Assembly (NCBI GenBank): GCA_002238945.1
Contig: MPNI01000002.1
Coordinates: 72,855-136,854 of the forward strand
Reading direction: 5' to 3'
DNA length: 64,000 nucleotides
Source of the DNA: Proteobacteria bacterium bin106
GTDB taxonomy: Bacteria > Bdellovibrionota_B > Oligoflexia > Oligoflexales > Bin106
Positions 30,531-64,000 of the stretch are shown piece by piece; the first letter of the stretch is position 1; every line of letters begins with the position of its first letter. Both the position numbers and the translations under genes were made by a program. The notes below the pieces were generated by a model. That model was not told the origin of the DNA. It made no database searches and saw only the letters and a program-made list of their open reading frames with translations.

Positions 30531-30566
30531 CTTATTGCACAACTTATTGCACAACTTATTGCACAA
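30531..30566. repeat. 12-nt tandem repeat (cttattgcacaa x3) containing the stop codon of the repeat lipoprotein
   Basis: Read directly. On the minus strand it reads gtt gtg caa taa x3, i.e. VVQ-stop three times in frame. Confidence 0.9.
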
Positions 30567-31965
30567 CGAGCACCAACGCTTGATCACCTAAGTAGGATAG
30601 ATCATTAACATTTTTATACAAAGCTAAACACGTACCATAGTGAGAAAAATCAAACTTCGTATTCCGCTCCACAGGTTGGCTGCCTTCTGCAGTCAAGTCA
30701 GATGTGTAATTCCCTGAACTCACTGAGCCCAAGACCACATCAGAACCTTTCATATAGACATTTCCTTGATTAACCTCTAAGCCAAGAGCTTGGGTTATAA
30801 GGCGGCCACTTTTTACCACAAATGTAGCTAAGGTGCTGGCTGTCACTCGATACAGTGAACCAAACAACACTGTGGCAAAACCAGCATAATCCAAAATACT
30901 ACCTTGATCATCTACCTGATTGCTATACAACGTTGTCACATAACGATCTATGACATATTCCCCACCGTCATGATAAATGACCTGATTAACCGCATTTTCA
31001 CACGCCAAATCACCTCTCGTTTCTTGAGCCCACATTCTCACGGTTTCTCCTTGAGCACCAGTGCCTCCTGTCTGTTGTTGCATAGCGCCTTTGCCCTGCA
31101 ATACACCAGCCTTACCTTTACCTTGCGCTACACCGCCTTGAAGAACACCACCCTTACCTTGACCTACGCCACCTTTGCCCTGAAGTACACCACCCTTACC
31201 TTGACCTACACCACCTTTGCCCTGAAGAACGCCACCCTTACCTTGACCTACGCCACCTTTGCCCTGAAGAACACCGCCCTTACCCTGCGCTACACCGCCC
31301 TGAAGAACGCCACCCTTACCTTGACCTACACCGCCTTTGCCTTGAAGAACACCACCCTTACCTTGACCTACACCGCCTTTGCCTTGAAGAACACCGCCTT
31401 GAAGAACACCGCCCTTACCTTGCAATACGCCTCCTTGAAGTACGCCGCCTTTAGTTGGTTCTCCTTTGCCTACAACCACAGCACCTTGCATGACACCGCC
31501 CTGAAGAACACCACCCTTACCTTGACCTACACCGCCTTTGCCTTGAAGTACGCCACCTTTGCCTTGACCTACACCGCCTTTGCCTTGAAGTACGCCGCCC
31601 TTGCCTTGAAGAACACCACCCTTACCTTGCAATACGCCACCTTTACCCTGAAGTACGCCGCCTTTGCCTTGACCTACACCACCTTGCTGGACGACTCCAC
31701 CTTGAAGTACGCCTTTTTGGCTAACCACAGTACCGCTGCTATCTTCAGGAACTTCTTCCACATCCTCAAGAACTTCCTCTGGCTCTTCTTGTTCCTGAAT
31801 TTCTTCAACAGGTGGTGGTGCAGCGGGAGCGTCAGGCTCGTTTGGAGCCAAAGTCTGATCTGCTGACTCACCACAGCTCCACACAATTACGCTAGCAAAA
31901 CACACACAGGCCAGCATTTTATAGGCACTCAAAGTAAACAATTGCCTGTTAACCAATGTTTTCAT
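30556..31965 (-). CDS. lipoprotein with an acidic linker, about 30 Gly-rich heptad repeats and a Cys-bracketed C-terminal domain
   Basis: ATG at 31965 has GGGGAG 8 nt upstream. Signal/lipobox MKTLVNRQ...VIVWSC|G. GKGGV[LG]Q repeats span aa ~87-299. The C-terminal domain is paralogous to CDS 32251..33132. Confidence 0.6.
   Translation of the reverse strand: MKTLVNRQLFTLSAYKMLACVCFASVIVWSCGESADQTLAPNEPDAPAAPPPVEEIQEQEEPEEVLEDVEEVPEDSSGTVVSQKGVLQGGVVQQGGVGQGKGGVLQGKGGVLQGKGGVLQGKGGVLQGKGGVGQGKGGVLQGKGGVGQGKGGVLQGGVMQGAVVVGKGEPTKGGVLQGGVLQGKGGVLQGGVLQGKGGVGQGKGGVLQGKGGVGQGKGGVLQGGVAQGKGGVLQGKGGVGQGKGGVLQGKGGVGQGKGGVLQGKGGVGQGKGGVLQGGVAQGKGKAGVLQGKGAMQQQTGGTGAQGETVRMWAQETRGDLACENAVNQVIYHDGGEYVIDRYVTTLYSNQVDDQGSILDYAGFATVLFGSLYRVTASTLATFVVKSGRLITQALGLEVNQGNVYMKGSDVVLGSVSSGNYTSDLTAEGSQPVERNTKFDFSHYGTCLALYKNVNDLSYLGDQALVLVVQ
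31078..31716. repeat. 21-nt (heptad) tandem repeat array, with a 42-nt higher-order unit in part
   Basis: Near-identical units, read directly, encoding GKGGVLQ/GKGGVGQ with shorter GGVLQ/GGVAQ variants. Confidence 0.95.
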
Positions 31966-33350: not shown

Positions 33351-35207
33351 TTGAATCATTCACAGGCACTTATGTTCACAGCCCTCAAACAACACCCCCT
33401 TTTTCAACTCTGGCTTAAACGTAAAGATTGGCGACGTAGAAGCGTTGTAGGAGCTGTATTTTCTTCTCTGAACAAGCTCTTTGATATCGCCCCAGAAATT
33501 CTTATTGGCCTTGCTGTAGATACTGTGGTGAATCGAGAAAGCAGTTTTCTTGCTGATATCCTTCATACCTCAGATCTTTTTTCCCAAATCCTCGCCCTTG
33601 GCGCTCTTACATTTCTTATTTGGGGACTCGAGTCTGTTTTTGAGTATTTACAAAAAATCACCTGGCGACGACTGGCACAAAATGTTCAACATGCCTTACG
33701 TATCGAAGCTTTCAGCCAAACCATTCATTATGCATTGAGTTGGTTTGAAAAAGAAACCACCGGAAACTACGTAACAACATTAAATGAAGATATCCATCAA
33801 CTGGAAAGATTTCTTGATGGTGGTATCAACACCATCATTCAACTGATCTGTTCAACGGTTTTTGTGTCATTGGTGTTTTTTTATGTCTCTCCCTTATTGG
33901 GCATTCTCTCTTTAATTCCCATCCCTTTACTCTTTGTGTGGTCTTCTCTATTTCATAAAAAATTACGCACCCTCTATAGCTTTGCACGCAAAGCCTCAGA
34001 AGATGTAGCGGTACGACTTAGTGGAGTCTTTTCAGGTATTGTGGTGATAAAAAGTTTTAATCAAGAAGATAATGAAACCAAAACACTCACCTCATTATCC
34101 AATGCCTATGTGGAAGCTAACCAGAAAGCTATTCTACTCAGCAGTGCTTTCACTCCCACTGTAAGAGTGTTTATTCTGCTGGGTTTTCTTTCCACATTGA
34201 TGGTAGGAGGATATTTGTGTCTTAGCGGAAAAATTGGTGTACCTGCTTACTCCATCGTGGTTTTCCTCACCCAACGCCTACTTTGGCCCTTCACCACCCT
34301 TGCTGAAACCATCGATCAATATCAACGCGCTATGGCTTCAAGTCATAGAGTGATGACATTCCTTTCTCAAAAAACCCAAAACCTCGAAGCAGCACAGCTT
34401 GCCACACCTAGCCCTATAACCAGCCCTATAACTAGCACTATAACTAGCACCCCGCCTTCTGCTTTGACATGTCAAAGCTTGCACTTTAAAGATGTTCACT
34501 TTTCTTACCCAGCATCTGAAAAGCCCACTTTGATAAATGTGAATATTGCAGCAAAAAAAGGTGAAGTGATTGGCATCTGTGGCCCAACAGGCAGTGGTAA
34601 ATCCACTCTTGCCAAACTCTTGCTACAGTTTTATCCACCAGCATCAGGAGGTATTTATTTTGATGATCATCTCACAGGAACAAGTCTACCCCAAGCCATG
34701 CGTCATTCCATAGCTTTTGTTTCACAAGACACGTTCTTGTTCGATGACACCATCGGCCATAACCTACTCTATGGCAATCCTGATGCCACAACGAGCCAAC
34801 TTCAAGAGGTGATGGATTTATGCAAGCTTTCTCCGTGGATAGCCACCTTACAAGAAGGCCTCAACACCGTTATTGGCGAAAGAGGGGTGAAGATATCAGG
34901 AGGACAAAGACAAAGGATATCACTAGCACGAGCATTGCTCAAAAAAGCACCCATTCTCGTCCTCGATGAAGCCACCTCTGCCATCGATAATGATACCGAA
35001 AAAGATATTAATGAGGTGATTTACGGACAAGCAAGCGATAAAATCACGCTCGTCATTGCCCACCGGCTCTCTACCATCAGAGCCGCTCATCGTATTTATG
35101 TGCTTGTAGAAGGGAAAGTTACCGAAACAGGAACCCATCAAGATCTCTGCAACAAACCACAAGGCACTTACCATAATCTGTGGAAACTTCAAACAGGAGA
35201 GTCTTAA
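33351..35207 (+). CDS. ABC exporter, fused permease/ATPase (MsbA-like type I)
   Basis: Six-TM domain, then Walker A GPTGSGKST, signature ISGGQRQR and Walker B ILVLDEATSAID. The linker carries the SPITSPITSTITST repeat. Start is TTG 33351 or ATG 33372. Confidence 0.85.
   Translation: MNHSQALMFTALKQHPLFQLWLKRKDWRRRSVVGAVFSSLNKLFDIAPEILIGLAVDTVVNRESSFLADILHTSDLFSQILALGALTFLIWGLESVFEYLQKITWRRLAQNVQHALRIEAFSQTIHYALSWFEKETTGNYVTTLNEDIHQLERFLDGGINTIIQLICSTVFVSLVFFYVSPLLGILSLIPIPLLFVWSSLFHKKLRTLYSFARKASEDVAVRLSGVFSGIVVIKSFNQEDNETKTLTSLSNAYVEANQKAILLSSAFTPTVRVFILLGFLSTLMVGGYLCLSGKIGVPAYSIVVFLTQRLLWPFTTLAETIDQYQRAMASSHRVMTFLSQKTQNLEAAQLATPSPITSPITSTITSTPPSALTCQSLHFKDVHFSYPASEKPTLINVNIAAKKGEVIGICGPTGSGKSTLAKLLLQFYPPASGGIYFDDHLTGTSLPQAMRHSIAFVSQDTFLFDDTIGHNLLYGNPDATTSQLQEVMDLCKLSPWIATLQEGLNTVIGERGVKISGGQRQRISLARALLKKAPILVLDEATSAIDNDTEKDINEVIYGQASDKITLVIAHRLSTIRAAHRIYVLVEGKVTETGTHQDLCNKPQGTYHNLWKLQTGES
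34410..34448. repeat. 12-nt tandem repeat (agccctataacc x3.3), in frame
   Basis: Read directly; encodes (SPIT/STIT)n in the ABC exporter's TMD-NBD linker. Confidence 0.9.
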
Positions 35208-35610: not shown

Positions 35611-38444
35611 GAAACATTCCTGCCACAACAATGTTTATACTTCTTTTTTGAACCACATGGACACGGATCATTACGACCCACCTTTTTTTCAGACTTACGT
35701 ACCACAGTTCCCAGACTTTTTTGAGACGAACTCTGACCCTCTGTCATAGCTCGTCTACCATCACTGTTATCTCCACCACCAGCTCCATGATAAGATACAC
35801 GCTTATCAAGATCCAAGTCCGCTGTTTTCTTATTAAGAATCTTGCGAGCTTTTTTGGGAAGAGTGTTTAAAGCATCGCTGAGTAACGCTTGAGTCGTTGG
35901 ACTCACCTCAGCTGTATCTTGCTGCTGTTCTTGCTGTTCTTGTTCTCCTTGTTGTTGCTGCTGTTCTTGTAAGGCAGCCTCTTTAGCACGCACAATTTCT
36001 TGGCGTGGAGGCACAGATAACAAAAAGCGGCTTATCTCACGATTGATGGTATCCATCAATCGGCTAAATAATTGATAAGCTTCTTTTTTATACTCCTGAA
36101 GAGGATCCCTTTGCCCATAACCACGTAATCTTACCGCATCTTTCAAACCATCCATATCCAAGAGATGACTCTTCCATTTCACATCCACTATTTGCAAATA
36201 CACCGACTGAGAAAGAGAATGGATTTCTTTAAACTCTTTAAGCACATCAAGTACATCGTCACATTTTTTATGAAGGTCCTGTTTGAGTATATCAAGAAAA
36301 GACTCCTCATCTTGAGGTAATGGTGCCGAACGTGATACATCGTCTTTGCTTCCTAAAATCACAGGAACGTAATGAAAGAGCTCCTGAGCCTTCTCTCTCA
36401 TTTTAGCTAAAGGCCAGCTGTCACGTTCTTCTTGATCATCTTTGAGCTGTTTTGGCACTAAAGAAGAATCGTGCGTATCTTTATCCATCGCTTGAAGCTC
36501 TTTAACCATGGCAGCATCTTCGAGTAACTCTGCTGCCATACGATCCACAGCATCAAACATCACCTCAGCAAAGTCCATTTCACCTCTAAGAGCCTCACCA
36601 CGTCTTTGATAAATAATCGTGCGCTGAGTGTTCATCACATCATCGTATTCTAGAAGATGCTTTCTTGATGAAAAGTTTTGTTCTTCCACACGTTTTTGAG
36701 CTTTTTCAATAGCCCGTGACACCATGGATGATTCAATAGCTGCACCACCTGTAAGACCCATGGTTTTCATAATTCCTGATAAACGATCTGAAGCAAAAAT
36801 ACGCATCAAATCATCTTCTAAAGACAGATAAAAACTGCTTTTTCCAGGATCACCTTGACGGCCTGAACGCCCCCTCAGCTGATTATCAATACGACGTGAT
36901 TCATGACGCTCTGTACCGATAACCAACAAACCACCTAAAGCTAAGGTTTCATCGCTTAACTGAATATCCGTTCCTCGACCTGCCATATTGGTAGCAATGG
37001 TGACATGTCCGCGCTCTCCAGCATGAGCAATAATATCCGCCTCACGAGAATGGTTTTTGGCATTAAGAATCTCATGAGGAGTGCCCTTATCTTTAAGAAG
37101 AGATGATAACAGCTCTGATTTTTCCACCGATGTTGTTCCTACCAGAACCGGCTGACCACGATGCGATTCTTTGGCAATCTGAGCAGCAATAGCTTCAAAT
37201 TTCTCAGAAGCTGTACGATACACCACATCCACCATATCCTGACGAATAATGGGCTTATTGGTGGGAATAACGACCACATCGAGATTGTAAATCTTCTTAA
37301 ACTCCACAGCCTCTGTATCAGCCGTACCTGTCATGCCAGAAAGAGTAGGGTACATGCGAAAGAAATTCTGAAAGGTAATACTCGCTAGAGTTTGTGTCTC
37401 TTTTTGGACCTCCACACTTTCTTTAGCCTCAAGGGCTGAATGCAAACCATCACCATAACGCCTACCAGGCATCAAACGCCCGGTGTGTTCATCGATGATC
37501 ATCACCCGGTTTTGCTGAACCACATAATGCACATCCTTTTTAAATAACACCTCAGCTTTAAGCGCCTGATGAATATGATGCAATAAATGTGCATGGGAAA
37601 GATCAAACATATTGGCTATCTTTAAACGCTTTTCTATACGTGATACCCCATCATCTGTTAAAGAAACACTACGGGATTTTTCATCGATCACATAATCACT
37701 GTCTTTGCGTAATCCTGTAATGGTCCGTCGCGCAAGATGATAACTGTCCTGCTCACCTTCAGCATCACCCGAAATAATCAAAGGAGTACGAGCCTCATCG
37801 ATAAGAATAGAGTCCACTTCATCCACAATGGCAAAATGAAAAGGCCTTTGTACCAAGTGATCCACATCCACTTTCATATTATCGCGCAAATAATCAAAGC
37901 CAAACTCGTTGTTAGTACCATAGGTGATATCAGCAGCATAAGCCTTCTTACGCTCCGCATAAGACAAACCCTGAACAATCACCCCAACCGATAAACCCAG
38001 AAAAGTATATGTGGCTCCCATCCACTTAGCATCACGCTGAGCTAAATACTCATTAACCGTAACAACATGAGCACCTTTGCCGGTTAAACCTCTTAAATAA
38101 CACGGCAAAGTTGCTGTAAGTGTTTTACCTTCACCGGTTTTCATCTCAGCAATATTGCCATAATGCAAGACAATACCACCAGCAAGTTGTACAGGGAAAT
38201 GTCTTTGAGAAAGAACACGTTTGCTCGCTTCACGACATACCGCAAACACTTCACATAACAGATCATCAAGAGATTTTCCGTTACGCAACAATTCTTTGAA
38301 ATAAGGCGTTTTAGCTTGCAACTCCTCATCGCTCAAAGCACTGATAGTAGGCTCTAAAGCCTCTATGTTTTTGACTAAAGGAGATATCTTTTTTTTAAGA
38401 ATTCTATCGTTTTGGGTGCCAAACAATCGCTGCATAAAAGCCAT
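35607..38444 (-). CDS. secA: preprotein translocase ATPase SecA
   Basis: MAFMQRLFGTQNDRILKK N-terminus, DEAD-like motifs (MKTGEGKTL, DEVDSILIDEARTPLIISG), TNMAGRGTDI, and the C-terminal Zn finger CPCGSKKKYKHCCG. ATG at 38444 has AGGTG 6 nt upstream. Confidence 0.97.
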   Translation of the reverse strand: MAFMQRLFGTQNDRILKKKISPLVKNIEALEPTISALSDEELQAKTPYFKELLRNGKSLDDLLCEVFAVCREASKRVLSQRHFPVQLAGGIVLHYGNIAEMKTGEGKTLTATLPCYLRGLTGKGAHVVTVNEYLAQRDAKWMGATYTFLGLSVGVIVQGLSYAERKKAYAADITYGTNNEFGFDYLRDNMKVDVDHLVQRPFHFAIVDEVDSILIDEARTPLIISGDAEGEQDSYHLARRTITGLRKDSDYVIDEKSRSVSLTDDGVSRIEKRLKIANMFDLSHAHLLHHIHQALKAEVLFKKDVHYVVQQNRVMIIDEHTGRLMPGRRYGDGLHSALEAKESVEVQKETQTLASITFQNFFRMYPTLSGMTGTADTEAVEFKKIYNLDVVVIPTNKPIIRQDMVDVVYRTASEKFEAIAAQIAKESHRGQPVLVGTTSVEKSELLSSLLKDKGTPHEILNAKNHSREADIIAHAGERGHVTIATNMAGRGTDIQLSDETLALGGLLVIGTERHESRRIDNQLRGRSGRQGDPGKSSFYLSLEDDLMRIFASDRLSGIMKTMGLTGGAAIESSMVSRAIEKAQKRVEEQNFSSRKHLLEYDDVMNTQRTIIYQRRGEALRGEMDFAEVMFDAVDRMAAELLEDAAMVKELQAMDKDTHDSSLVPKQLKDDQEERDSWPLAKMREKAQELFHYVPVILGSKDDVSRSAPLPQDEESFLDILKQDLHKKCDDVLDVLKEFKEIHSLSQSVYLQIVDVKWKSHLLDMDGLKDAVRLRGYGQRDPLQEYKKEAYQLFSRLMDTINREISRFLLSVPPRQEIVRAKEAALQEQQQQQGEQEQQEQQQDTAEVSPTTQALLSDALNTLPKKARKILNKKTADLDLDKRVSYHGAGGGDNSDGRRAMTEGQSSSQKSLGTVVRKSEKKVGRNDPCPCGSKKKYKHCCGRNVS

Positions 38445-39490: not shown

Positions 39491-39645
39491 CCCTCTCTGA
39501 TCCGTTAAAAACGATCTAACTCTCTTCGCTCATTCTCTCTATTTCGTCTATTGTTTTATCTCTCTTGTTTGCTCTCAAGTAACATCACCTAAGCCATCAC
39601 TTCGACAATAACACCTCTTCACATAATGAGAATTACACTCTCTCT

Positions 39646-39689
39646 CTCATTCATCTCTCATTCATCTCTCATTCATCTCTCATTCATAT
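39646..39689. repeat. 11-nt tandem repeat (ctcattcatct x4)
   Basis: Read directly. Lies in the spacer between the PP2C gene and the M23 peptidase gene. Confidence 0.9.
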
Positions 39690-39828
39690 ATAGCGCCTCA
39701 ACTGGTTCACCTGTATCCATGGTGGATTGTGTATTATTTGTATCTGTATCACTCATTACGGTAGATTATAGATTATAGATATTCTGTGGCATAACTCAAA
39801 GATGAGCTAGAGGTGAACTAGAGGTGAG

Positions 39829-46991: not shown

Positions 46992-48389
46992 TTAGGCAAG
47001 AATATCTTTGATATAAGACTGAAAAGCCAAGCCTCGAGCTGCAAAGTTTTGATATTCTCCAAAAGACTCACATCCAGGAGATAACACCAACACCACCTGC
47101 TGGTGCATTCGCCACCACTGAGCAAGTGCGCCATTGGGGGACATCAATTCTTTAAGCGATGGAGAAAGAACAGAGTCCCTAACAGCGGTTAAGCTTTTGG
47201 CTATGTCATGGCAAGCTTTTCCATAAATAAAGACTTTACAAATCTGCTTAAGATGTTCTGTAAGTAATGAAAAATCTTGATCTTTTTTAGGACAACCTCC
47301 CAAAATCACCGCCACATAACATGGCTTATAAGTCACCAAAATCCTACGTAAACCATAAGCCACAGCTTCCACATTGGTAGCTTTAGAGTCATCGATGGCC
47401 GTATAGATATGGCCTTTATAAGGAAATGTATGCTTACTGCAACGATGAGGCAAACCTTCAAAACTTTTGAGCACCGTTTTCATTGCTGATACGGGCATAT
47501 TTGCTACACGCATCATGGCATCTTTAAGCTTGATGTCATACCTTACTGTGCTGTTAGCCAAGGGATGATAACAACGTTGGTAATAAGCCTGAGCTGCTTC
47601 TTTAAGGGTGGTTATGGCTAAAGTTTCTAAAAGATCCTCCTCTTGTGCTGTCACTTCACAGTAACGATGCAGAGGAGCTGAAAGATTATGGGTGTGTGCT
47701 ATATCCATCACCGCTTTGGTAGTAATAAAAGGCGGTGGTATGGCACAACGGTTGTTATACAGTGATATCAGCCGCCATTTTGTTTGAATGTAGCAAGCAA
47801 GGCTCTGATGACGATTGAGGTGATCTTTACCCAGGCCTGTCATCACGCTGGCTAAAGCAGATATATGCTGACTACTTGCCAGCTGATAACTCGAAAGCTC
47901 CACCACATACCATGGTGTGTCATGCTCAGATAAAGCTGCCGTACTCATAGCAACACCGATATTTCCAAGCATCGGACACTTCAAACCATAGTGTTCACTG
48001 AGATAACTGATCATAGCTGTCAGGGTGGATTTGCCATTGGTACCTGTGACAGCTATCACCGGACGTGGTAGAAAAAACCAGCCAAAGTCAAGTTCTGAAA
48101 CACATCCACAACAGTGTTTCTGAGCAAACTGGTACGTTTGCGTTGTTTCAGGTATACCCGGTGAAGGCATAAACCATAAATCTTTTAAGCATATATTTTT
48201 TTGCTGGATACTACTGGCATATGATCTGATATCTGCTGGAATATCCATATGATCGTGTGGTTTAACGAACGCATCATCCCATAGATGAAACGCAATATGA
48301 TGTTTCATGGCAAGTCTTGCTGCTGCAAGACCACTGATACCCACACCATAAATCAACAATCCCTGAAAAAAACGCTTTTTTTTAGGCAT
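46992..48389 (-). CDS. murD: UDP-N-acetylmuramoylalanine--D-glutamate ligase
   Basis: N-terminal Rossmann GVGISGLAAARL, Mur ligase P-loop VTGTNGKST, and its position after mraY. Confidence 0.85.
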   Translation of the reverse strand: MPKKKRFFQGLLIYGVGISGLAAARLAMKHHIAFHLWDDAFVKPHDHMDIPADIRSYASSIQQKNICLKDLWFMPSPGIPETTQTYQFAQKHCCGCVSELDFGWFFLPRPVIAVTGTNGKSTLTAMISYLSEHYGLKCPMLGNIGVAMSTAALSEHDTPWYVVELSSYQLASSQHISALASVMTGLGKDHLNRHQSLACYIQTKWRLISLYNNRCAIPPPFITTKAVMDIAHTHNLSAPLHRYCEVTAQEEDLLETLAITTLKEAAQAYYQRCYHPLANSTVRYDIKLKDAMMRVANMPVSAMKTVLKSFEGLPHRCSKHTFPYKGHIYTAIDDSKATNVEAVAYGLRRILVTYKPCYVAVILGGCPKKDQDFSLLTEHLKQICKVFIYGKACHDIAKSLTAVRDSVLSPSLKELMSPNGALAQWWRMHQQVVLVLSPGCESFGEYQNFAARGLAFQSYIKDILA

Positions 48390-48458
48390 TGTTGAATGCT
48401 TCCCTCTCTATAAACACCTATTTTTTATAACCATATAACAAGAGGTATACAGCACACA

Positions 48459-49577
48459 TTAACGAAGCTTAAGACTTAACAACCCCACCATAGCTAAAAT
48501 AATAGCAATTATCCAAAAGCGTACAATCACCCTGGGCTCAGGCCAACCTTTTAACTCAAAATGATGATGAATAGGAGCCATTTTAAACAGCCTTTTACCT
48601 GTTAGCTTAAACGATATCACTTGTGTGATCACACTGAGTGTTTCTAAAACAAATATCCCACCGATAATCACCCATAAAATCTCATGACGTGTCAGAACAG
48701 CAAAAAGTCCTAAAGCTCCCCCCAAAGGCAAAGAGCCCACATCACCCATAAAGACCTGAGCTGGATAAGTATTATACCAAAGAAAGCCTAACCCTGCACC
48801 CACCATGGCTGCAGCAAAAATACTTAACTCTCCACTACCGGGCAGATGATGGTAATGTAAATACCGTGATATTTCGATATGCCCCGTCACATAAGCAAGA
48901 AGAGCGAAAGTAGCAGAAGCAATCATCACCGGACCAATAGCTAAACCATCCAAACCATCGGTGAGATTGACGGCATTTGAACTTCCCACAATCACCACAC
49001 ACGCAAACGGAATAGCGAGCCAACTTAAAGGGATAACCACCTGTTTTAAAAAAGGCACATACACCAGCGATAACTGCGGAGCTCCACTGTCTGCCAGTAC
49101 GTCATAAGAACCCTGATCACCGTACCAATACTGAAATATCACCACCACAATGGCTGCCACAGAAAACTGCCAGATCAACTTCCCATACGGTCTGACACCT
49201 TGTGAATTTTTGGCACGTATTTTTAAATAATCATCTAAAAAACCTAATGCACCATAACTAGCAACCACTATAAAAGGGAGCCACAGAAAAGGACTATTCA
49301 GGTCCATCCAAAGAAAACTCGGTATCAACACAGAAAGGATGATCAGTCCTCCTCCCATAGTGGGTGTACCACGCTTTACATAATGAGAATCAGGACCATC
49401 CTCTCTGATCACCTGCCGCAATTGACCATTTTTAAGACGCCGAATAAACCACGGAGAAAATATAAAACTGATCAACAAGGCACTTAAAAGAGCCATGGGA
49501 GCACGAAAAGTGATATAACGAGCCACATTCATCAAGGGCCATTCACTTGCAAGCATGGAAAACACATAAGGAATCAT
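48459..49577 (-). CDS. mraY: phospho-N-acetylmuramoyl-pentapeptide transferase
   Basis: GTPTMGG, NAVNLTDGLDGLA, MGDVGSLPLGG and APIHHHFELKGW motifs. Confidence 0.95.
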   Translation of the reverse strand: MIPYVFSMLASEWPLMNVARYITFRAPMALLSALLISFIFSPWFIRRLKNGQLRQVIREDGPDSHYVKRGTPTMGGGLIILSVLIPSFLWMDLNSPFLWLPFIVVASYGALGFLDDYLKIRAKNSQGVRPYGKLIWQFSVAAIVVVIFQYWYGDQGSYDVLADSGAPQLSLVYVPFLKQVVIPLSWLAIPFACVVIVGSSNAVNLTDGLDGLAIGPVMIASATFALLAYVTGHIEISRYLHYHHLPGSGELSIFAAAMVGAGLGFLWYNTYPAQVFMGDVGSLPLGGALGLFAVLTRHEILWVIIGGIFVLETLSVITQVISFKLTGKRLFKMAPIHHHFELKGWPEPRVIVRFWIIAIILAMVGLLSLKLR

Positions 49578-49584
49578 CTTTGAT

Positions 49585-51195
49585 TCATTCTAAATTTAAT
49601 GAAGCCACCATATCATCTGCCACCTTATCAAGCTTCATACCACGAGATCCCTTGATATACACCCATTGCCCGCCATACTCCAACCACTGTGTCATATAAT
49701 CCCTATACACCTCTGAGCTTAACAAATCATCCACTTTGGGATAATAGTGAATACATGCATTTTCCAAACCAGACACACGAGCAAAACCAGCCTTCATAGC
49801 CGCCCCTACCAACAACAAAGATGTATCTTTAAAAGAAAACCTTTCTGCAATCCACTCTCCCAACAAGCCATGTAGCGTACCAGAAGCAGCCCCCAAATCC
49901 AGCATATCTGCTAATATCAACACTTTTGTTGCTCTTGCAGCAAGCTTGTGAAAACTCAGTAACCCAGCACGCATACTCTGCAGATGAGCATTATAGCTAT
50001 CATCCACAACAGTCACACCCAAAGGCGATGATAGCAAACAAAACCGACCATTCAATGGCAAGAGCTTCAACTCAGAGCGTGCTTGTAACGCCTCTCCTCT
50101 ACCCAGTGCAAGTATCACAGCACAAGCAGCAGCCACATGCAAAGACGTGCTTTGATGCACACCTTTTACCGTAACCGTAACACTTACTGTATCACCTAGC
50201 TTGTCAGCTAGGTGATACAAAGAAGCAAGCTTTGAAGCTATGTTCATCTCCACAGTTGTGGATCTTGCTGCTACATCTAAATGACTGTGTTGAATACAGA
50301 CTTGAGCTTCTTTGCAAACCCCGAAACCATAACTCTGATCATGAGATAACATCACCTGCCTGATACGCTCATCATCCATCCATCCTACCCATTTAGCTTG
50401 CTTGCTATGATGGAACATTTCCAGTTTTCCAGCATAAAGATTGTCAAGAGATCTGATAGCTTGTAGATGACTTGGATAAACACAGGTAAGGACACACACT
50501 TGAGGACATGCCATCTTTAACAAAAAAGCAATATCTCCCTTGTGACGCATGCCCATTTCCACAATAAGATCATTGGTGGTTGGATGAGTTTGTAATAAGG
50601 TTTTAGCCACACCGATTTCATTGTTTTCATTGTTAACCGTTGCAGCTACCACATGACCTTGCCCCATCAACTCCATCAGCCATTTTTTCACATATTCTTT
50701 TAATGTGGTTTTACCAGATGATCCTGTAATAGCAATCACAGTGGTGTGTTTAAGGATCTGCCTACGATACACTCTACTAAGAACACAATACGCCTCTTTG
50801 CTGCAACGCACAGCTATGGCAACAACTTCAACTGGCTCACCTTGCTCACCTTGCTCATCAATCTCTTTTCTCATAGCTTTGATGTCATAGCGCTTGGGCT
50901 CATAAAAAAACCCACGCACTCCTTGCTGCACAGCTGCTGCTATAAAATCATGACCATCATAGTTCTTGCCAGCTAAAGGCATAAACACAGCATGATCAGC
51001 TAAATGACGGCTGTCTGTGGATAACCACTCTTGGGTGGGATCCACAATAAAGCTCGTTACAGAGCTAGTTTTAGGGCTAGTTTTAGGGCTAGCTTTAGGG
51101 CTAGTCTGAGCTCTTTGAGCCACACGGCTAGCACCTATAAAAACCTCTTCTTGTGCTAAAGCAGCCACAACATCAAAATAAGGCGTTTTATCCAC
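49585..51195 (-). CDS. murF: UDP-N-acetylmuramoyl-tripeptide--D-alanyl-D-alanine ligase (with an N-terminal PKTS repeat insertion)
   Basis: Mur ligase P-loop ITGSSGKTT, DDSYNA, and its position between murE and mraY. Contains the insertion SPKASPKTSPKTSS. Confidence 0.85.
   Translation of the reverse strand: MDKTPYFDVVAALAQEEVFIGASRVAQRAQTSPKASPKTSPKTSSVTSFIVDPTQEWLSTDSRHLADHAVFMPLAGKNYDGHDFIAAAVQQGVRGFFYEPKRYDIKAMRKEIDEQGEQGEPVEVVAIAVRCSKEAYCVLSRVYRRQILKHTTVIAITGSSGKTTLKEYVKKWLMELMGQGHVVAATVNNENNEIGVAKTLLQTHPTTNDLIVEMGMRHKGDIAFLLKMACPQVCVLTCVYPSHLQAIRSLDNLYAGKLEMFHHSKQAKWVGWMDDERIRQVMLSHDQSYGFGVCKEAQVCIQHSHLDVAARSTTVEMNIASKLASLYHLADKLGDTVSVTVTVKGVHQSTSLHVAAACAVILALGRGEALQARSELKLLPLNGRFCLLSSPLGVTVVDDSYNAHLQSMRAGLLSFHKLAARATKVLILADMLDLGAASGTLHGLLGEWIAERFSFKDTSLLLVGAAMKAGFARVSGLENACIHYYPKVDDLLSSEVYRDYMTQWLEYGGQWVYIKGSRGMKLDKVADDMVASLNLE
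51064..51111. repeat. 12-nt tandem repeat (gctagttttagg x3 plus a degenerate copy), in frame in murF
   Basis: Read directly; encodes (PKTS)n on the minus strand. The same 12-mer unit recurs at 54371-54394. Confidence 0.9.
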
Positions 51196-52696
51196 TCGTG
51201 TCTTTCATAAAAAACTCTTCCACAACGTTTCGATCCGAAAAAGGCACACTCACATCGCCTATGATTTGTCTATCTTCTACCCCTTTACCTGCAACCAACA
51301 CACTCACTTGCCCTTGATAATCTTTGATAGCCATTTTAAGAGCATATTCCACAGCTTCTCTACGATGGACATAAACATACACTCGTTTGTGATCCTGTGT
51401 GGTTAGGGCTACTTTGATGTCTTCAATGATCTTCAAAGGATCTTCGCTACGAGGATTATCACTGGTTAATACAATGGTCTCAGCTCCTTTTAGGGCTTCT
51501 TGCATCATCAAAGGACGTTTCTTACGATCCCGATCTCCTCCACAACCAAAAACACAGATAATAGGCAACCCAAATTGATGACGGATATCACACAAAGCCA
51601 GTTTCAATGCACGAGGACTGTGAGCATAATCAATGATCACATAAGGCACAGAGTGTACCACATTCATACGCCCAGGCACCTGTGGGAGTTGCTTAAAATC
51701 ACAACGATCCCACAACTCCTCAACTGTTATCTCAAGTGTTTGTGCTGCCACATGAGCAGCTAATACAAAGTTTCTTTGCATCACACCCACATAAGGAAAA
51801 CCACTACGAGCACCTCCAAAAGCAGCTACATCCACGCTCTTATACGGTACAGATTGAGCTTGCAATGTCTCACGGATAAGATGTTTGAAGCGAGGCACAC
51901 TCAAGACCTGTTGATCTATGAAAACAGCGCTCTTGGCTGTGATATAAGGATGCTGCAGGAGACGCACTTTAGCAGCAAAATACTGATCAAGACTCTTGTG
52001 CACATCCAGATGGTCCTGAGAGAAACTGGTCCATACAACAGCACAAAAACACATGCCATATAATCGGTGTTGTTCAAGACTATGAGATGACACCTCCATA
52101 ACCAACCAAGTGATGCCTTGTTGTACAGCAGAGAATAACACAGGAAAGAGTCGATCTGGATTAGGTGTTGTATGGGTGTTAAAAGATAAAAGAGGAAAAC
52201 GTTCCGTGCTTTCCAGATCCCCAAGTAACCCTAACGTTCCTAAAGCCATATGCTTCACTGCCAGCTGTTTCCATAACTGATGGACCATAAACACCGTCGA
52301 ACTTTTACCATTCGTTCCTGTAACGGCAATAGAGCGTAGCTGATTTTGAGGATGATCATAAATATATGACATCCCAAGAGCCCAACCCTTTCTCGCATCT
52401 GTCAGCTGAATATAAGAGATGTTCTTCAGCCTATCTTTGGTGATAGCTGTTATATCTTCAAGAAGATATAACAGGATAGGTTTTGTAGCTTTCCTGTGTA
52501 ATCGCAGGTGATGATCAAAATGCACGCCTTTATATAACACCACTCCCCATAAAGGATCTTGATGATCATCCCATAAGGTGAGTCCTTTAATGGGCTGTAA
52601 AGGATTGAGCAATTGAGCCCCTACCACCAAGCCTTTGCTGGTTAACATGTCACAGAGCATGGAGTGGGTTTTCATGGCTGGGGAAGGCATCATCAC
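51188..52696 (-). CDS. murE: UDP-N-acetylmuramoyl-L-alanyl-D-glutamate--2,6-diaminopimelate ligase
   Basis: VTGTNGKSS P-loop, IIDYAHSP, CVFGCGGDRDRKKRP, SDNPRSEDP. 8-nt overlap with murF. Confidence 0.9.
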   Translation of the reverse strand: MMMPSPAMKTHSMLCDMLTSKGLVVGAQLLNPLQPIKGLTLWDDHQDPLWGVVLYKGVHFDHHLRLHRKATKPILLYLLEDITAITKDRLKNISYIQLTDARKGWALGMSYIYDHPQNQLRSIAVTGTNGKSSTVFMVHQLWKQLAVKHMALGTLGLLGDLESTERFPLLSFNTHTTPNPDRLFPVLFSAVQQGITWLVMEVSSHSLEQHRLYGMCFCAVVWTSFSQDHLDVHKSLDQYFAAKVRLLQHPYITAKSAVFIDQQVLSVPRFKHLIRETLQAQSVPYKSVDVAAFGGARSGFPYVGVMQRNFVLAAHVAAQTLEITVEELWDRCDFKQLPQVPGRMNVVHSVPYVIIDYAHSPRALKLALCDIRHQFGLPIICVFGCGGDRDRKKRPLMMQEALKGAETIVLTSDNPRSEDPLKIIEDIKVALTTQDHKRVYVYVHRREAVEYALKMAIKDYQGQVSVLVAGKGVEDRQIIGDVSVPFSDRNVVEEFFMKDTSG

Positions 52697-52734: not shown

Positions 52735-54138
52735 CTAAGGATCTTGGTTCTTCTCAGCATTCTTAGAATCCTGTGAGTCAGCAGGGAGTTGTTGAGTACT
52801 GAGAAGCTCTACTTCAAGTGTTTCCAGCTTGGCTTGAATCACCTCCAAATTGCCCTGAACTCTATTTAACCACCGAGAGGTAGGATAAGAGGCCATGGCT
52901 TCTTGTAACTTCTTTTCTGCATCACGCAAGTACGTTATTTTTCTTTGTAAAGAATTCACACGTACATGGTTTTGAAACAATTGAGCCGCTTCTTTGCGCA
53001 ATTCACTCACTGCAGCATCTGAATATTGAGCTGCCAAAGAACGAGCACTGCCAAAATGAGGCGATGATTGAGGAATGCCCTCTAACAAAGCCACCGCCTT
53101 TTTATACTCTTCTTTCACATAAAGGTCTTTAGCTTGACGAATCAGCTTATCGCCTTCAGCAAACACTCCCGCTGAATATTCCTGTTGTGGCTTTTCTTGA
53201 AGAGTGTTCACTTCTGGCAAAACTGCTGGCACAGACACAGGAGATGAAAACTGCTCAGAGTCTTCTCCTGCTGAGTCATAACTTTCAATCAAACGATCCA
53301 GCCCTGTCCATAAACGTGATTTAGGCTTCACAAATGACACCACAGAAAGAATAGTGCTGTCTTTAGCACCCACATACATCAACACCAATAAAGTCACATG
53401 AAATATGGTTGGATGAAAAAGGATACGATTATTTTTTAACTCATACACCAAGTTTAAACGATACTCTTTAGCTAAATCCGATAACAGCTCAGCGGATTCT
53501 TCATCCGTTACCCCCTCATCTTTTGAACGATTTTGCAAAAGATGCTCAAATTCCACCACAGCATGTTCTAGCAATGCTAGAAACAAAATAGCTTTTTCTT
53601 TATCCGTACGACTATCAGGATCCTGATCCATAAGATACTCAATAATCTGCTCTTGTTTCACAGAAACGTTAGCTGTAAATATACGCCCTGTAGCCACTAT
53701 GTTACGTCCATAACGCAACAAACTTTTCCATAATTGATCCATTTCTTCTACAGTAGGAGCAACCATCACCACATCATCAAAATCGCCATCAAACACCGGT
53801 TGAGATATGGATAACTCTTCTGGCCCCAATACAGATAAACCCGATGAATCAGATGAAGACACATCCACATCTACTCCTGCTAAAGAGTTGGATGGAGACA
53901 AAGCTGTTTTTTCTTTCATATCCTTGGCAAGATTTTTGTTCTTAAGAGAGTTTTCTTTACTTTTGTTTTTCTCTTGTTCTTTCTTTTGTGTATCCATTTT
54001 TTCTGGAAGTGTTGCAGAATCCTCAATAGGCGATTCTACAGATGATGTCACACAACCTGTTGTTGCAAAAAGCATAACAGCCATAAAAATGCATACATAA
54101 TATACAGACATATGTTGTAGTGATGAAAAATGTTTCAT
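52735..54138 (-). CDS. lipoprotein, hypothetical (acidic linker and helical/TPR-like C-terminal region)
   Basis: Signal/lipobox MKHFSS...VMLFATTGC|V. No penicillin-binding motifs despite occupying the position upstream of murE. Confidence 0.5.
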   Translation of the reverse strand: MKHFSSLQHMSVYYVCIFMAVMLFATTGCVTSSVESPIEDSATLPEKMDTQKKEQEKNKSKENSLKNKNLAKDMKEKTALSPSNSLAGVDVDVSSSDSSGLSVLGPEELSISQPVFDGDFDDVVMVAPTVEEMDQLWKSLLRYGRNIVATGRIFTANVSVKQEQIIEYLMDQDPDSRTDKEKAILFLALLEHAVVEFEHLLQNRSKDEGVTDEESAELLSDLAKEYRLNLVYELKNNRILFHPTIFHVTLLVLMYVGAKDSTILSVVSFVKPKSRLWTGLDRLIESYDSAGEDSEQFSSPVSVPAVLPEVNTLQEKPQQEYSAGVFAEGDKLIRQAKDLYVKEEYKKAVALLEGIPQSSPHFGSARSLAAQYSDAAVSELRKEAAQLFQNHVRVNSLQRKITYLRDAEKKLQEAMASYPTSRWLNRVQGNLEVIQAKLETLEVELLSTQQLPADSQDSKNAEKNQDP

Positions 54139-54144
54139 GGTTTT

Positions 54145-54256
54145 CTTTATGTGAGTTGCTTTATGTGAGTTGCTTTATGTGAGTTGCTTTATGTGAGTTG
54201 CTTTATGTGAGTTGCTTTATGTGAGTTGCTTTATGTGAGTTGCTTTACGTGAGTAA
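54145..54256. repeat. 14-nt tandem repeat (ctttatgtgagttg, 7 perfect copies plus 1 degenerate)
   Basis: Read directly. The array ends 6 nt upstream of the ATG (54138) of the lipoprotein gene. Confidence 0.95.
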
Positions 54257-54346
54257 CTGGCACAAAGTGTTTTTATATTGTTTATATACATGATCACAGT
54301 CATTATGCGTTGTTCTTTGGTTTTTTGATGTTATGGGTTCTTTTTG

Positions 54347-54406
54347 GCTAGTTTTATAGCTAGTTTTATAGCTAGTTTTAGGGCTAGTTTTAGGGCTAGG
54401 TTTACT
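54347..54406. repeat. 12-nt tandem repeat (gctagttttata x2, gctagttttagg x2, gctaggtttact)
   Basis: Read directly. Confidence 0.9.
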
Positions 54407-54444
54407 GTTTATTGCTGATAAGAAACTCAAAAAAAGCACTCTTA

Positions 54445-54496
54445 TAACTTATACCGATAACTTATACCTATAATTCATATCTATAACTCATATCAT
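54445..54496. repeat. 13-nt tandem repeat (ataacttataccg-like, x4, diverging)
   Basis: Read directly. Confidence 0.8.
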
Positions 54497-54589
54497 TTTG
54501 AGAGCACCATAAAAACCCGCAGAGCTTTCTTGTTACGACTTAGTTTACTACATGCCAGAGGTGAAACAAAAGCAAGGCTATGGGCAATC

Positions 54590-56014
54590 TCACAACGGTT
54601 CTACCACATCTGCACTTGCTAGCAAGCCAGGATGAGATACTTCTTTGAGTGGTTGCCTGCCTAGAAGCGATGAAACCAGCATTTTGCCAAAATAAGCAGC
54701 AAAAAAATAGCCGGTTTTATCCAAACCTCCAAACAACCACATAGAAGCATACTTCTTTGCAACACGACTGTGTTCATTTTGCCAAAGAGCGCCCATAACA
54801 GGCTTGCCCTCACGCAAAGTAAGACGTCTAGCTGAATGCATCCACAATGCTTGGGCTTTTAAAAATCCTGCACGACCTTCTCTAAGAGACATTTTATGGC
54901 TCGCTTGATAAAACTGCCTGATAGCCTTTTGACACTCCTGACACACCTGATCTTTAACACCACTCTCAGTCCCATTCCCTGTGAAATAGGACTGCTTTAT
55001 GCTTAGAGGCCTTTTTGCTGTTAAGCAATATGGACACCCCTGAGATGATAATGAGCTAGCAACTTTTGTATTAAATGAACCAAACGCATACTTCACACAA
55101 GAAGAATCTATCACCTCTCCTCGGCACGATCTTGCCCCTTGCTTCCAAGCAAACATATTACTTTGCACAGGATTGTCGATATTAAGAGCTGCAAGCAAAG
55201 TGTTACGACAATCAGGTGCAAGCCACGAAAATACCCGTCCATAACTCATAGAGCTCTTTACAGAAAATCTCAGCTTCAACTGTTTCAATGTTGTAGGTAA
55301 AGCATCACCCACACATAACACCACATGACTATAAGAACGATGAGCAATATGCCAGCAAGAACCTTTATAAACAGGCAATGCGTGATGATGAAAGAAACGG
55401 TTGTTTTTATGAGTGAGTACGAAAGCCTTTAAAGATTCCAGTAAACGCTTTGGAGAATACACAAAACCCTGAGGATACACGTAAGCATACGGAAACATAC
55501 CTTCACTTAGCTTTTCACGTAATAACCGTGAATTGTTAGAATCAGAATGATGATACGATAGAAAATCTTTGGTAAAAAAACCCTGAGGAGCTCTTTGATA
55601 AGTACGTTGTGCCTGAAGACGATAATCTTTTAACGTTTGAAACGGCTCTATCACACCGCCTTGATGCCAAAGAGAAGAAGCAGGTGATATGTCTTTACAA
55701 GATAAAGAGTGAGAAGATAACTCGCTTAGTAACTCTTTAAGAGCCCAAAAACCACGCATTTTTCCATGAAATACACCACTACGAGCTAGTGATATGCCCT
55801 TAAGAGTAGCAACGCCTTGAGCTGCCTCACTGGCACTCATAGTACCACTCTGTTGATGATGATAGATATGCACACACCGCTGAGCTTTACAGAGATAATA
55901 AGCTACAGATAATCCAGCAATACCTGCTCCTATCACAGCAATAGGAAGATCATCCTGTAAAGAGTTATGTTGCTTCAGGTGAGCCATCGTTATCATCACC
56001 AGATGGTGAAGCAC
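54590..56014 (-). CDS. FAD-dependent oxidoreductase (DAO/glycine-oxidase-like fold)
   Basis: N-terminal dinucleotide-binding motif [16 protein letters not shown]. The 5' end overlaps the gyrA 3' end by 23-50 nt, depending on which Met is used. Confidence 0.6.
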
Positions 56015-62596: not shown

Positions 62597-62599
62597 GCT

Positions 62600-62844
62600 T
62601 TATCCACTCCTTATGGTGTCTCTATAGCTATAAAGAAGGAGTATAATATATCTGTAGTAGTATTAGTAGGTGATTTTTTCTGTGGAAAAGCCTATGAAAC
62701 CTCTGTGTAGCCCACAATCTTCATAGGATAACTTTGTGGAAAACTTTCTTAAAGGATGTGGATAGAATGGGATATCATAGAGCCTAAGGGGAACATGTTC
62801 GTTACACATCAATCCATACACAACGTATCCCCAACTTATTCACA
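62600..62844. promoter_or_regulatory. DnaA-box cluster / candidate oriC in the dnaA-dnaN spacer
   Basis: Five 9-mers, each one mismatch from TTATCCACA; three of them also fit the looser TTWTNCACA. TTATCCACT 62600-62608; TGTGGAAAA 62681-62689 and 62735-62743 (rc TTTTCCACA); TGTGGATAG 62757-62765 (rc CTATCCACA); TTATTCACA 62836-62844. AT-rich stretch at 62641-62670. Confidence 0.6.
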
Positions 62845-62896
62845 ACACGTTTTTTACAATAAGATAAGAAGCTATAATCGCCAAAGAGGTAGGTGT

Positions 62897-64000
62897 TTAG
62901 CAAGATACTTGTTGACTTAAAGAGATGATGGTGGATGTGATTTGATCCACATGAAAGCGTAGCTTAGCATCTGTTTTGCAGCTAGCAGCGATTTTCTTAA
63001 CTCCATAAAGCACGGTGGTGTGGTCTTTACCACCAAAGGCAGCCCCTATCTCAGGTAAGGAATGAGAGGTGAGCTCCTTAGATAGGTAAAACGCCACTTG
63101 ACGTGGAAGTGATACCACTCGATGGCGTTTTGCAGAACGTAGATCACAGGCTTTGATGTCGTAATGTTTTGCCACAGTTTTTTGTATGAGATCTATACTG
63201 ACTTTGTTTTGCTGATGGTTGTTGAGATGCTGAAACGCTGATACAGCAAGATCAAGATTGATGGTGTGAGCATGGAATCCAGCGAAAGCCACAAGACGCC
63301 TTAGAGCTCCTTCCAGTTCTCTAACATTACGTCTACAACGTGAGGCGATATAAGCAATCACATCAGCAGGAACGTTTACTTTCATATCTTCAGCTTTTGA
63401 ATAAAGGATAGCCATGCGATGTTCCGTGTCAGGAGGCTGGATATCAGAAATAAGCCCCCACTCAAAACGATTGCGCAATCGATCCTCAATATCACTGATT
63501 TCGTTAGGATATTTATCAGAAGTGATAATGATTTGTTGCTTACGTTCATAAAGAGCATTGAATACATGGAAGAATTCTTCTTGAGTAGCTTTTTTGCCAG
63601 ATATGAACTGAATATCATCCACTAAAAGTACATCACATCGCGTGTACTTTTCTTTGAAACGAGCCTGCTGACCATGACGTATGCAATGAATGAGCTCGTT
63701 CATAAAGTTATGGGTTGTGGTATGAAGCACATGAAGATGATCATGTATAGCTGCTATCTTACCCCCTACTGCATGAAGGAGGTGGGTTTTTCCAAGCCCA
63801 GAATGTCCGTAAATAAACAAAGGATTGTAGTTGGTACCTGGACTTTCAGCTACACTCTGACAGGTAGCATAAGCAAACTGATTGGAGGGGCCTTTAACAA
63901 AGTTATCAAAGGTGTAAGAAGAGTTTAGAGTGTTAGAAGTGGCTGTTTGACTAGAATGACTAGCAGAGGACTCCTGAGAGGCTGTAGGTAGTACGACGGT
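62897..64000 (-). CDS. dnaA: chromosomal replication initiator DnaA (N-terminus beyond window end)
   Basis: YNPLFIYGHSGLGKTHL (Walker A), LLVDDIQF (Walker B), and the C-terminal DNA-binding domain GGKDHTTVLYGVKKI. The frame continues upstream of the ORF-track start (63820) to the window edge. Confidence 0.95.
   Translation of the reverse strand, partial: TVVLPTASQESSASHSSQTATSNTLNSSYTFDNFVKGPSNQFAYATCQSVAESPGTNYNPLFIYGHSGLGKTHLLHAVGGKIAAIHDHLHVLHTTTHNFMNELIHCIRHGQQARFKEKYTRCDVLLVDDIQFISGKKATQEEFFHVFNALYERKQQIIITSDKYPNEISDIEDRLRNRFEWGLISDIQPPDTEHRMAILYSKAEDMKVNVPADVIAYIASRCRRNVRELEGALRRLVAFAGFHAHTINLDLAVSAFQHLNNHQQNKVSIDLIQKTVAKHYDIKACDLRSAKRHRVVSLPRQVAFYLSKELTSHSLPEIGAAFGGKDHTTVLYGVKKIAASCKTDAKLRFHVDQITSTIISLSQQVSC

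Follow-up and report, generated by a model that had tools for sequence, protein, structure and literature searches.

In the 64,000-nt stretch of DNA analyzed here (contig MPNI01000002.1 of Proteobacteria bacterium bin106, referred to as the window), the 451-nt spacer at 54139-54589 separates a gene for an orphan lipoprotein from the oxidoreductase gene upstream of it and harbors three different tandem arrays, with units of 14, 12, and 13 nt. The 14-mer array ends 6 nt before the ATG of the lipoprotein gene. We consider it likely, with a probability of about 0.7, that the three arrays are short variable-number tandem repeats (VNTRs) made and resized by replication slippage in the non-coding DNA of a repeat-rich symbiont genome, with the 14-mer lying in the leader of a lipoprotein gene linked to the division cluster and having at most a graded effect. 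The array is one example of the slippage-prone repeats found across the non-coding DNA of this symbiont and not a purpose-built switch.

Repeat Arrays of the Spacer

Arrays were detected with Tandem Repeats Finder (TRF), complemented by a pattern search and by direct reading of the sequence. The spacer contains the following elements:

54145-54256, minus strand: 14-nt tandem array, seven perfect copies and one distal degenerate copy (TTACTCACGTAAAG); unit on the strand of the gene CAACTCACATAAAG
54347-54404, minus strand: 12-nt tandem array, 4.8 copies, units CTAGCCCTAAAA / CTAGCTATAAAA (TRF)
54443-54492, minus strand: 13-nt tandem array, 3.8 copies, unit GGTATAAGTTATA, 83% matches (TRF)
54139-54144, minus strand: AAAACC linker from the last 14-mer unit to the ATG, with no Shine-Dalgarno sequence
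54257-54346, minus strand: unique A+T-rich segment between the 12-mer and 14-mer arrays, holding a weak sigma-70-like candidate
54329 to 54302, minus strand: this weak sigma-70-like candidate, ATCAAA-16-CATAAT (8/12), the sole candidate on the strand of the gene

TRF reports the period-14 array at 54145-54254 with 7.9 copies, 98% matches, and a score of 213 (unit CTTTATGTGAGTTG on the plus strand), while the pattern search places seven exact minus-strand copies of CAACTCACATAAAG at 54145-54242 and an eighth, with 3 mismatches, at 54243-54256. Read on the plus strand, the order is CAT (54136-54138), ggtttt (54139-54144), and then the array. No other array in the window is as long or as pure as this one, whose unit the pattern search found at no other site of the 64 kb. 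TRF also lists a weak 11-mer (1.9 copies) at 54268-54288. The three arrays, their coordinates, the seven-plus-one composition of the 14-mer, and the 6-nt gap had all been described in an initial annotation of this DNA and are confirmed by TRF, pattern search, and direct reading. The same holds for its statement that the ribosome-binding region is itself repeat: no sequence resembling a ribosome-binding site was found there, and no coding frame runs through the 14-mer.

Tandem arrays make up 53% of the spacer, the most repeat-dense of the window. Because ten shuffles of the window yield no array at a TRF score of at least 60, a chance origin of the arrays is excluded. The 14-mer array is present in five independent assemblies.

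Several other readings of the spacer were rejected. The 14-mer contains TAA in every frame within three units and is thus non-coding, stopped in all frames. An open reading frame of 64 amino acids (aa; 54245-54439, minus strand, GTG start) crosses the 12-mer array, which it reads as SPKT/SYKT repeats in the same SPKT frame as a copy of this repeat in murF (see below). It has no family match, is absent from the NCBI and ENA gene calls, and is probably not a real gene. An origin or iteron function finds no basis in 54139-54589, which contains no DnaA box (TTATCCACA-like, up to 1 mismatch); such boxes cluster 8 kb away, both in and beside the dnaA-dnaN spacer. A structured RNA, riboswitch, or terminator was likewise discarded: there is no Rfam match at the gathering threshold in the whole window, the RNA folds no better than shuffled sequence, and no terminator-like site occurs in the spacer.

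Copy-Number Differences Between Assemblies

The window matches the NCBI metagenome-assembled genome (MAG) GCA_026712765.1, contig JAPOPS010000065.1, and assemblies from ENA, JGI, and Logan contain the same organism. Among the Logan runs, SRR8093131 and SRR6214543 are metagenomes of the sponge Aplysina aerophoba (10.1101/2024.01.09.574914). SecA of the window is 62-65% identical to that of the nearest contigs and ~55% identical to those of named Oligoflexales, Zetaproteobacteria, and Deltaproteobacteria MAGs. The organism is a deep-branching, uncultured, Oligoflexia-like symbiont of the sponge Aplysina aerophoba.

All retrieved contigs were aligned to the window. Their identity to it is essentially 100%, with 0-1 single-nucleotide polymorphism (SNP) per 10-20 kb, and all indels found, at three loci, are whole repeat units. 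Over ~53 kb, JAPOPS010000065.1 differs from the window by 0 SNPs and two indels, of 70 and 11 nt. The larger one lies in the 14-mer array, which has eight copies in the window and three (two perfect and one degenerate) in the NCBI MAG, exactly 70 nt or five units fewer. Contigs of ERZ27241797 and JGI 3300027386 stop within the array after a minimum of 4.7 and 3 perfect units, respectively, and therefore do not carry the three-copy allele. The gene-side contig of ERZ27241797 contains a variant 14-mer unit, and this assembly has at least 8 units overall; contigs L001, L021, and L022 end inside the array. The comparison among samples that the initial annotation had proposed as a check thus returns 8 copies, 3 copies, and at least 8 with a variant unit, the NCBI MAG being the only full-length alternative allele seen. 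Exact-protein look-ups list two more contigs, of 50-200 kb, on which the locus is present.

The other two variable loci are the following:

39643-39687, no strand assigned: perfect 11-mer intergenic array, unit TCTCTCATTCA, 4.1 copies; four copies in the window and in JGI 3300027328, three in the NCBI MAG and two MEGAHIT assemblies
31088-31685, minus strand: in-frame coding repeat of the GKGGVLQ type, with a 21/42-nt period, in a putative lipoprotein

At 39643, one unit of 11 nt is absent from the NCBI MAG and from two k141 MEGAHIT assemblies. Since the array is only 45 nt long and the assemblies are k141, assembler collapse is not credible, and unit-level polymorphism is real in the population. 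In the coding repeat, the ERZ27241794 assembly is shorter by one 42-nt unit (31310-31351). Among the intergenic arrays of the window, those with the two highest scores are the ones that vary with respect to the NCBI MAG, as slippage predicts. On balance, the three-unit allele of the 14-mer is probably real, although it comes from a single assembly of unseen method.

Two observations concern the surroundings of these loci. The spacer 39491-39828, from the PP2C phosphatase gene to the M23 peptidase gene, contains four arrays, and Logan contigs start or end exactly at the variable 11-mer. The putative lipoprotein at 30556-31965 (minus strand, …VWSCG) carries ~27 GKGGVLQ/GKGGVGQ heptad-like repeats and has no Pfam match.

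Distribution of Arrays Across the Window

Arrays are concentrated in non-coding DNA: 28 lie in 6.8 kb of spacer (4.1 per kb) and 25 in 57 kb of coding sequence (0.44 per kb), a ~9-fold difference, in a window whose coding density is 89%. The coding arrays have periods that are multiples of 3 in 21 of 25 cases. At a TRF score of at least 50, the window contains 22 arrays, compared with 0-2 in shuffles, 1 in a 50-kb stretch of E. coli K-12, and 5 in 21 kb of a related genome; at this threshold the density is ~17 times that of the E. coli stretch, a figure that compares one window with one control stretch. Arrays also occur in convergent 3'-3' spacers and in short intra-operon gaps (trkH-trkA, nqrD-E, nqrE-F, and nqrF-apbE), the gaps of nqr, trk, and secA being counted among the 28 intergenic arrays, and their density is lowest in divergent, promoter-bearing spacers. 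Enrichment in all types of spacer, together with in-frame periods in genes, points to a genome-wide mutational process filtered by selection and not to a promoter-specific design. The initial annotation had taken a 14-nt unit, not a multiple of 3, as a sign of design; non-coding DNA simply tolerates such periods, while coding arrays nearly all have multiples of 3.

An array within ~40 nt upstream of the start is found in 9 of 46 genes, and the absence of a Shine-Dalgarno sequence (29 of 45 genes) is the norm here. The units are almost all private to a single array; the 12-mer family alone recurs. This family, CTAGCCCTAAAA (ACTAGCCCTAAA / ...TATA), forms arrays at three unlinked sites in the window, namely the spacer and two coding sites:

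51064-51105, minus strand: CTAGCCCTAAAA, 3.5 copies, inside the murF N-terminus, read as SPKT repeats
34408-34448, plus strand: CTAGCCCTATAA, 3.4 copies, inside an ABC-transporter linker, read as TSPI repeats

No flanking sequence is common to the three sites, and on this ground the origin of the family in a mobile element was rejected.

Two further features of sequence composition were observed. CTAG is moderately depleted in the window (observed/expected 0.58); intergenic DNA, which makes up 10.7% of the sequence, accounts for 22% of its occurrences, mostly in repeat units bearing GCTAG/CTAGC. In-frame low-complexity arrays also occur in conserved genes, at 35911-35969 (Q/E-rich, close to the SecA C-terminus) and at 11449-11489 (DK repeats, NqrC).

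Turnover of Arrays in Relatives

In two relatives, represented by contigs L025 and L002, the lipoprotein gene lies directly downstream of ftsZ and has a canonical lipobox (MRVLAIIAMATWLSGC) and an AGGAG, with no real array. Upstream of it, L002 retains a decayed 12-mer trace (TRF score 48, 67% matches); nothing is reported in L025. The ftsZ leaders of the two (L025:5340-5700 and L002:7312-7575) are otherwise alignable, with 77% column identity, the main differences being a 12-mer array of 4.4 copies (AAAACAGTAAGC) that only one of them has and a GAGAGAC array (4.9 copies) of unequal size. Both arrays lie downstream of a conserved TTGACA-17-TAGAAT promoter and are present or expanded in one relative and absent or short in the other. 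This comparison indicates that arrays appear and vanish fast, that the leader of an essential gene can accommodate them, and that the lineage uses ordinary sigma-70 promoters.

A separate observation concerns the lipoprotein gene of L002, in which a stop soon after the signal peptide (L002:9847-9950) breaks the frame, so that the gene is called from an internal start (359 aa) on this low-coverage ("4x") contig. The sister contig L025 is intact, and the break is probably a sequencing error.

The Lipoprotein Gene and Its Neighborhood

On the minus strand, the gene order is dnaA (cut by the end of the window), dnaN, gyrB, gyrA, an FAD-dependent oxidoreductase gene, the spacer, the lipoprotein gene, murE, murF, mraY, and murD. 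The features that bear on the transcription of the lipoprotein and mur genes are:

54590-55987, minus strand: FAD-dependent oxidoreductase (DAO family), upstream of the spacer, with no terminator-like site after it
52735-54138, minus strand: orphan lipoprotein gene, 467 aa from M1, with a signal peptide and a lipobox (...LFATTGC)
52730 to 52702, minus strand: candidate murE promoter TTGAGA-17-GATAAT (10/12, a consensus match only) in the 41-nt lipoprotein-murE gap
46992-52696, minus strand: murE, murF, mraY, and murD, downstream of the lipoprotein gene on the same strand

The choice of start codon decides whether the 14-mer array abuts the lipoprotein gene. ENA gene calls start at the ATG at 54138 (467 aa) and the NCBI annotation starts 18 codons later, at M19 (54084, 449 aa). 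A start at M19 leaves 10 residues before the lipobox cysteine, too short for a signal peptide, while M1 (MKHFSSLQH...) provides the charged n-region expected of one. A start at M10 is possible, in which case the array would end 33 nt upstream. At none of the three candidate starts is there a Shine-Dalgarno sequence (no AGGA, GGAG, or GAGG).

The predicted protein consists of ~100 aa of disordered linker after the lipobox and an all-helical remainder. Its family has three members, all in this lineage; it has no NCBIfam match and, in Pfam, only sub-threshold TPR and BamD-like hints. The AlphaFold model reaches a pLDDT (predicted local distance difference test) of 55 and has no Foldseek match at an E-value of 0.001 or below. 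Searches of GTDB species genomes, JGI metagenome contigs, and IMG/VR returned no match to either the lipoprotein or a 28-nt double unit. The protein is 44% identical to its nearest homologue, compared with 65% for SecA against a contig of the same relative. The gene adjoins cell-division genes both here and in the two relatives, so that its product does not look like an obvious surface antigen. That it is linked to ftsZ or mur genes in each of the three genomes suggests a possible envelope or division role, and not a variable antigen.

No sigma-70-like site matching at least 9/12 positions occurs on the strand of the gene in the spacer. If the 8/12 candidate at 54329 to 54302 is used, the whole 14-mer array would be transcribed as a 5' leader. 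The TTGAGA-17-GATAAT site in the lipoprotein-murE gap is one of four 10/12 sites in the 18 kb scanned on both strands and, if real, may uncouple the mur genes from the 14-mer array. This site ends ~6-9 nt before the murE GTG/ATG, which would imply a very short murE leader or none. Read-through into the mur genes from gyrBA and the oxidoreductase gene is also possible. The initial annotation had placed the array before the only transcription unit carrying murE-murF-mraY-murD, a claim weakened both by the candidate site in the 41-nt gap and by the lack of a terminator between the gyrB-gyrA-oxidoreductase genes and the spacer.

The row dnaA, dnaN, gyrB, gyrA marks 62597-64000 as the probable replication origin. 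Six DnaA-box-like sites lie at 62600-62951, and the sign of the GC skew changes in the last 2 kb of the window. Over the whole window, DnaA-box-like 9-mers (up to 1 mismatch) number 58 against 20 expected (~3 times the shuffles, none of which reaches 58), an excess that may reflect oligonucleotide bias.

Leader RNA and Proposed Mechanism

The modelled leader RNA has fold z-scores of +0.45 and +1.9, and is thus no more stable than shuffled sequence; the RNA of the array is G-poor. In leaders modelled with 0-16 units, predicted accessibility around the AUG is unchanged. No complementary partner for the repeat was found of the kind known from the Haemophilus influenzae hmw genes, and an hmw-like hairpin was rejected: partner and structure are lacking and accessibility is flat.

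In the explanation that we favor, replication slippage in non-coding DNA would create and resize the arrays, and selection would filter its products, keeping in-frame periods inside genes. The 14-mer array would lie either within the transcribed 5' leader or immediately upstream. As its G-poor unit is predicted to be largely unstructured as RNA, a change in copy number would alter only leader length or promoter distance. An effect on lipoprotein expression is plausible on this model, and would act by that route because the RNA is unstructured, accessibility is flat, and no hairpin partner exists; it would likely amount to at most a graded, modest change and not to an ON/OFF switch. For the essential mur genes, buffering would probably come from their own promoter in the lipoprotein-murE gap, from upstream read-through, or from the two combined.

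Alternative Explanations

The initial annotation had read the spacer as a contingency locus, in which selection would keep the 14-mer tract as a device that reversibly switches or tunes the lipoprotein gene, and possibly the mur operon as well, with alleles at different expression levels in the population. Part of this reading stands, since a variable tract does lie at the leader. This tract, which abuts the start codon, is the longest and purest of the window, shows the largest copy-number difference seen (5 units), and occupies the most array-rich spacer; its product is a fast-evolving, lineage-restricted lipoprotein, and in hmw the number of 5' untranslated region (5'-UTR) repeats sets expression inversely to repeat length (PMC12721329). 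The idea of a dedicated locus does not fare as well. Such arrays are spread everywhere in the genome, including convergent spacers and other places without a promoter, with the lowest density in divergent spacers. They also come and go between close relatives, in which the orthologous gene is preceded by a normal AGGAG and by no real array. In contrast to hmw, no hairpin partner is predicted, and accessibility of the start site is independent of copy number. Moreover, the gene travels with ftsZ in relatives, which suggests a housekeeping envelope role, and the mur genes are essential, so that an OFF state would kill the cell if these genes had no promoter of their own. We regard a dedicated contingency locus as unlikely. 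A broader version, in which long-unit (6-14 nt) arrays in 5' leaders would form a genome-wide, heritable, and reversible tuning system, gain or loss of units resetting leader length and output of many genes, including this lipoprotein and ftsZ in relatives, is speculative and seems improbable to us. Host-bound populations, though almost devoid of point-mutation diversity, could in this way each hold a range of expression states, and, as a variant of the same idea, G-poor arrays could serve as ribosome landing pads independent of a Shine-Dalgarno sequence. It is very improbable that the arrays are binding sites, either for a protein (S1, Csp, a CsrA-type or DNA-binding regulator) or for the ribosome, with copy number setting the number of sites. 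The 14-mer array does run in forward orientation up to 6 nt from the ATG, where it takes the place of a Shine-Dalgarno sequence, its unit is A/C-rich, G-poor, and unstructured, 9 of the 46 genes have an array within ~40 nt upstream of their start, and a similar arrangement is known from TAACTGA sets, mostly a few nt from start codons without a Shine-Dalgarno sequence (PMC4679880). However, the 14-mer unit occurs at no other site in 64 kb, nearly every array having its own unit and hence no common recognition motif; arrays are also found in convergent spacers, and the lack of a Shine-Dalgarno sequence is the rule in this genome.

A different possibility is that the 14-mer copy-number difference is an assembly artefact and the array stable non-coding DNA. 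Short-read contigs break within the 14-mer array, and the 33-nt periodic run of the NCBI allele equals, by calculation, the minimal loop traversal for k of at most 33. With 0 SNPs over 53 kb, the assemblies may also share reads or one host specimen. On the other hand, the 45-nt array and the 42-nt coding repeat also differ by whole units, each state being backed by several k141 assemblies, for which collapse is an implausible cause; a modern assembler that meets an unresolved loop will usually end the contig there and not make up a junction; and the variant unit of ERZ27241797 represents sequence heterogeneity inside the array. We therefore judge an artefact to be unlikely. Some points nevertheless weigh against the explanation that we favor. 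The difference of 8 versus 3 units comes from the NCBI MAG alone, whose assembly method is not visible, and de Bruijn loop collapse would yield its periodic run at k of at most 33, though not at k of at least 55. Several samples come from one sponge specimen, leaving few independent populations. The 5-unit change is much larger than the 1-unit changes elsewhere and falls in the most repeat-dense spacer, both of which could reflect selection at the locus. The want of a sigma-70-like site of 9/12 or better upstream of the gene also counts here, and local slippage alone leaves the occurrence of the 12-mer unit at three unlinked sites without common flanks unexplained.

Comparison with Known Repeat Systems

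At the genome-wide level, the closest parallels are Ehrlichia ruminantium and bacterial VNTR loci in general; in local geometry, they are hmw and the TAACTGA repeats. In E. ruminantium, non-coding DNA is loaded with tandem repeats, and their expansion and contraction are a major difference between near-identical genomes (Collins 2005 and Frutos et al. 2006, as cited in PMC10710844). The symbiont shares with it a host-associated lifestyle, non-coding DNA in which repeats are enriched above chance, and gain or loss of units as a leading kind of difference between near-identical genomes. In contrast to E. ruminantium, it belongs to an unrelated, Oligoflexia-like lineage (SecA ~55% identical to named taxa), its units measure 6-14 nt, and its coding density is 89% in the window, vs. 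64% in E. ruminantium. The repeat units of the latter are said, in work by Frutos from 2006, to be roughly 150 bp long. Tandem repeats serve as VNTR typing markers in multiple-locus VNTR analysis (MLVA), for example in Wolbachia (PMC3287509). Like these loci, the arrays described here are intergenic minisatellites whose copy number differs among near-identical strains, and nothing fundamental sets them apart, although at ~17 times the one E. coli control stretch their density is unusually high.

Expression tuning by such an array is best studied in the hmw1A/hmw2A genes of H. influenzae, where 7-bp repeats in the 5'-UTR affect expression inversely to repeat length (PMC12721329; PMC8262952). 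The repeat acts via a long hairpin with a G-rich partner that is processed by RNase III (PMC12721329). As in hmw1A/hmw2A, the unit is not a multiple of 3 and array length differs among closely related cells; the hmw array lies between promoter and start, and the 14-mer between a candidate promoter and the start codon. Unlike hmw, the symbiont has no predicted hairpin partner or structure, and its arrays are genome-wide and not restricted to a few dedicated loci. The TAACTGA direct repeats of marine Beggiatoaceae, Cyanobacteria, and Bacteroidetes consist of one conserved heptamer at ~170 loci, and binding of a post-transcriptional regulator has been proposed for those proximal to start codons (PMC4679880). 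Both systems comprise many short direct repeats in intergenic regions, often a few nt before a start codon without a Shine-Dalgarno sequence and also before essential genes, and the geometry at the lipoprotein gene (forward orientation, 6-nt gap, no Shine-Dalgarno sequence) corresponds. The shared unit does not: almost all arrays here have a private one, and the 14-mer is unique in the window. With simple-sequence-repeat contingency loci, the 14-mer shares a perfect tract at a leader or promoter and a tract length that differs (8 units in the window, 3 in a single assembly, the NCBI MAG, and no fewer than 8, with a variant unit, in ERZ27241797). Confinement of repeats to a few dedicated genes, such as those for surface, host-interaction, or restriction-modification functions, is not seen in the window, with its 28 intergenic arrays in 6.8 kb.

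Implications

Repeats in promoters and leaders are already a well-known theme, and as a regulatory mechanism the present case adds little. For annotation it holds a warning, as MAG assemblies break or disagree exactly at the arrays and pipelines do not agree on where the lipoprotein gene starts. Provided that the copy-number variation is real, the arrays would be the fastest-changing sites in a population with almost no SNPs and would provide ready-made strain markers for the transmission of sponge symbionts. They would also be a place to ask whether slippage gives useful expression diversity to a clonal, host-restricted bacterium.

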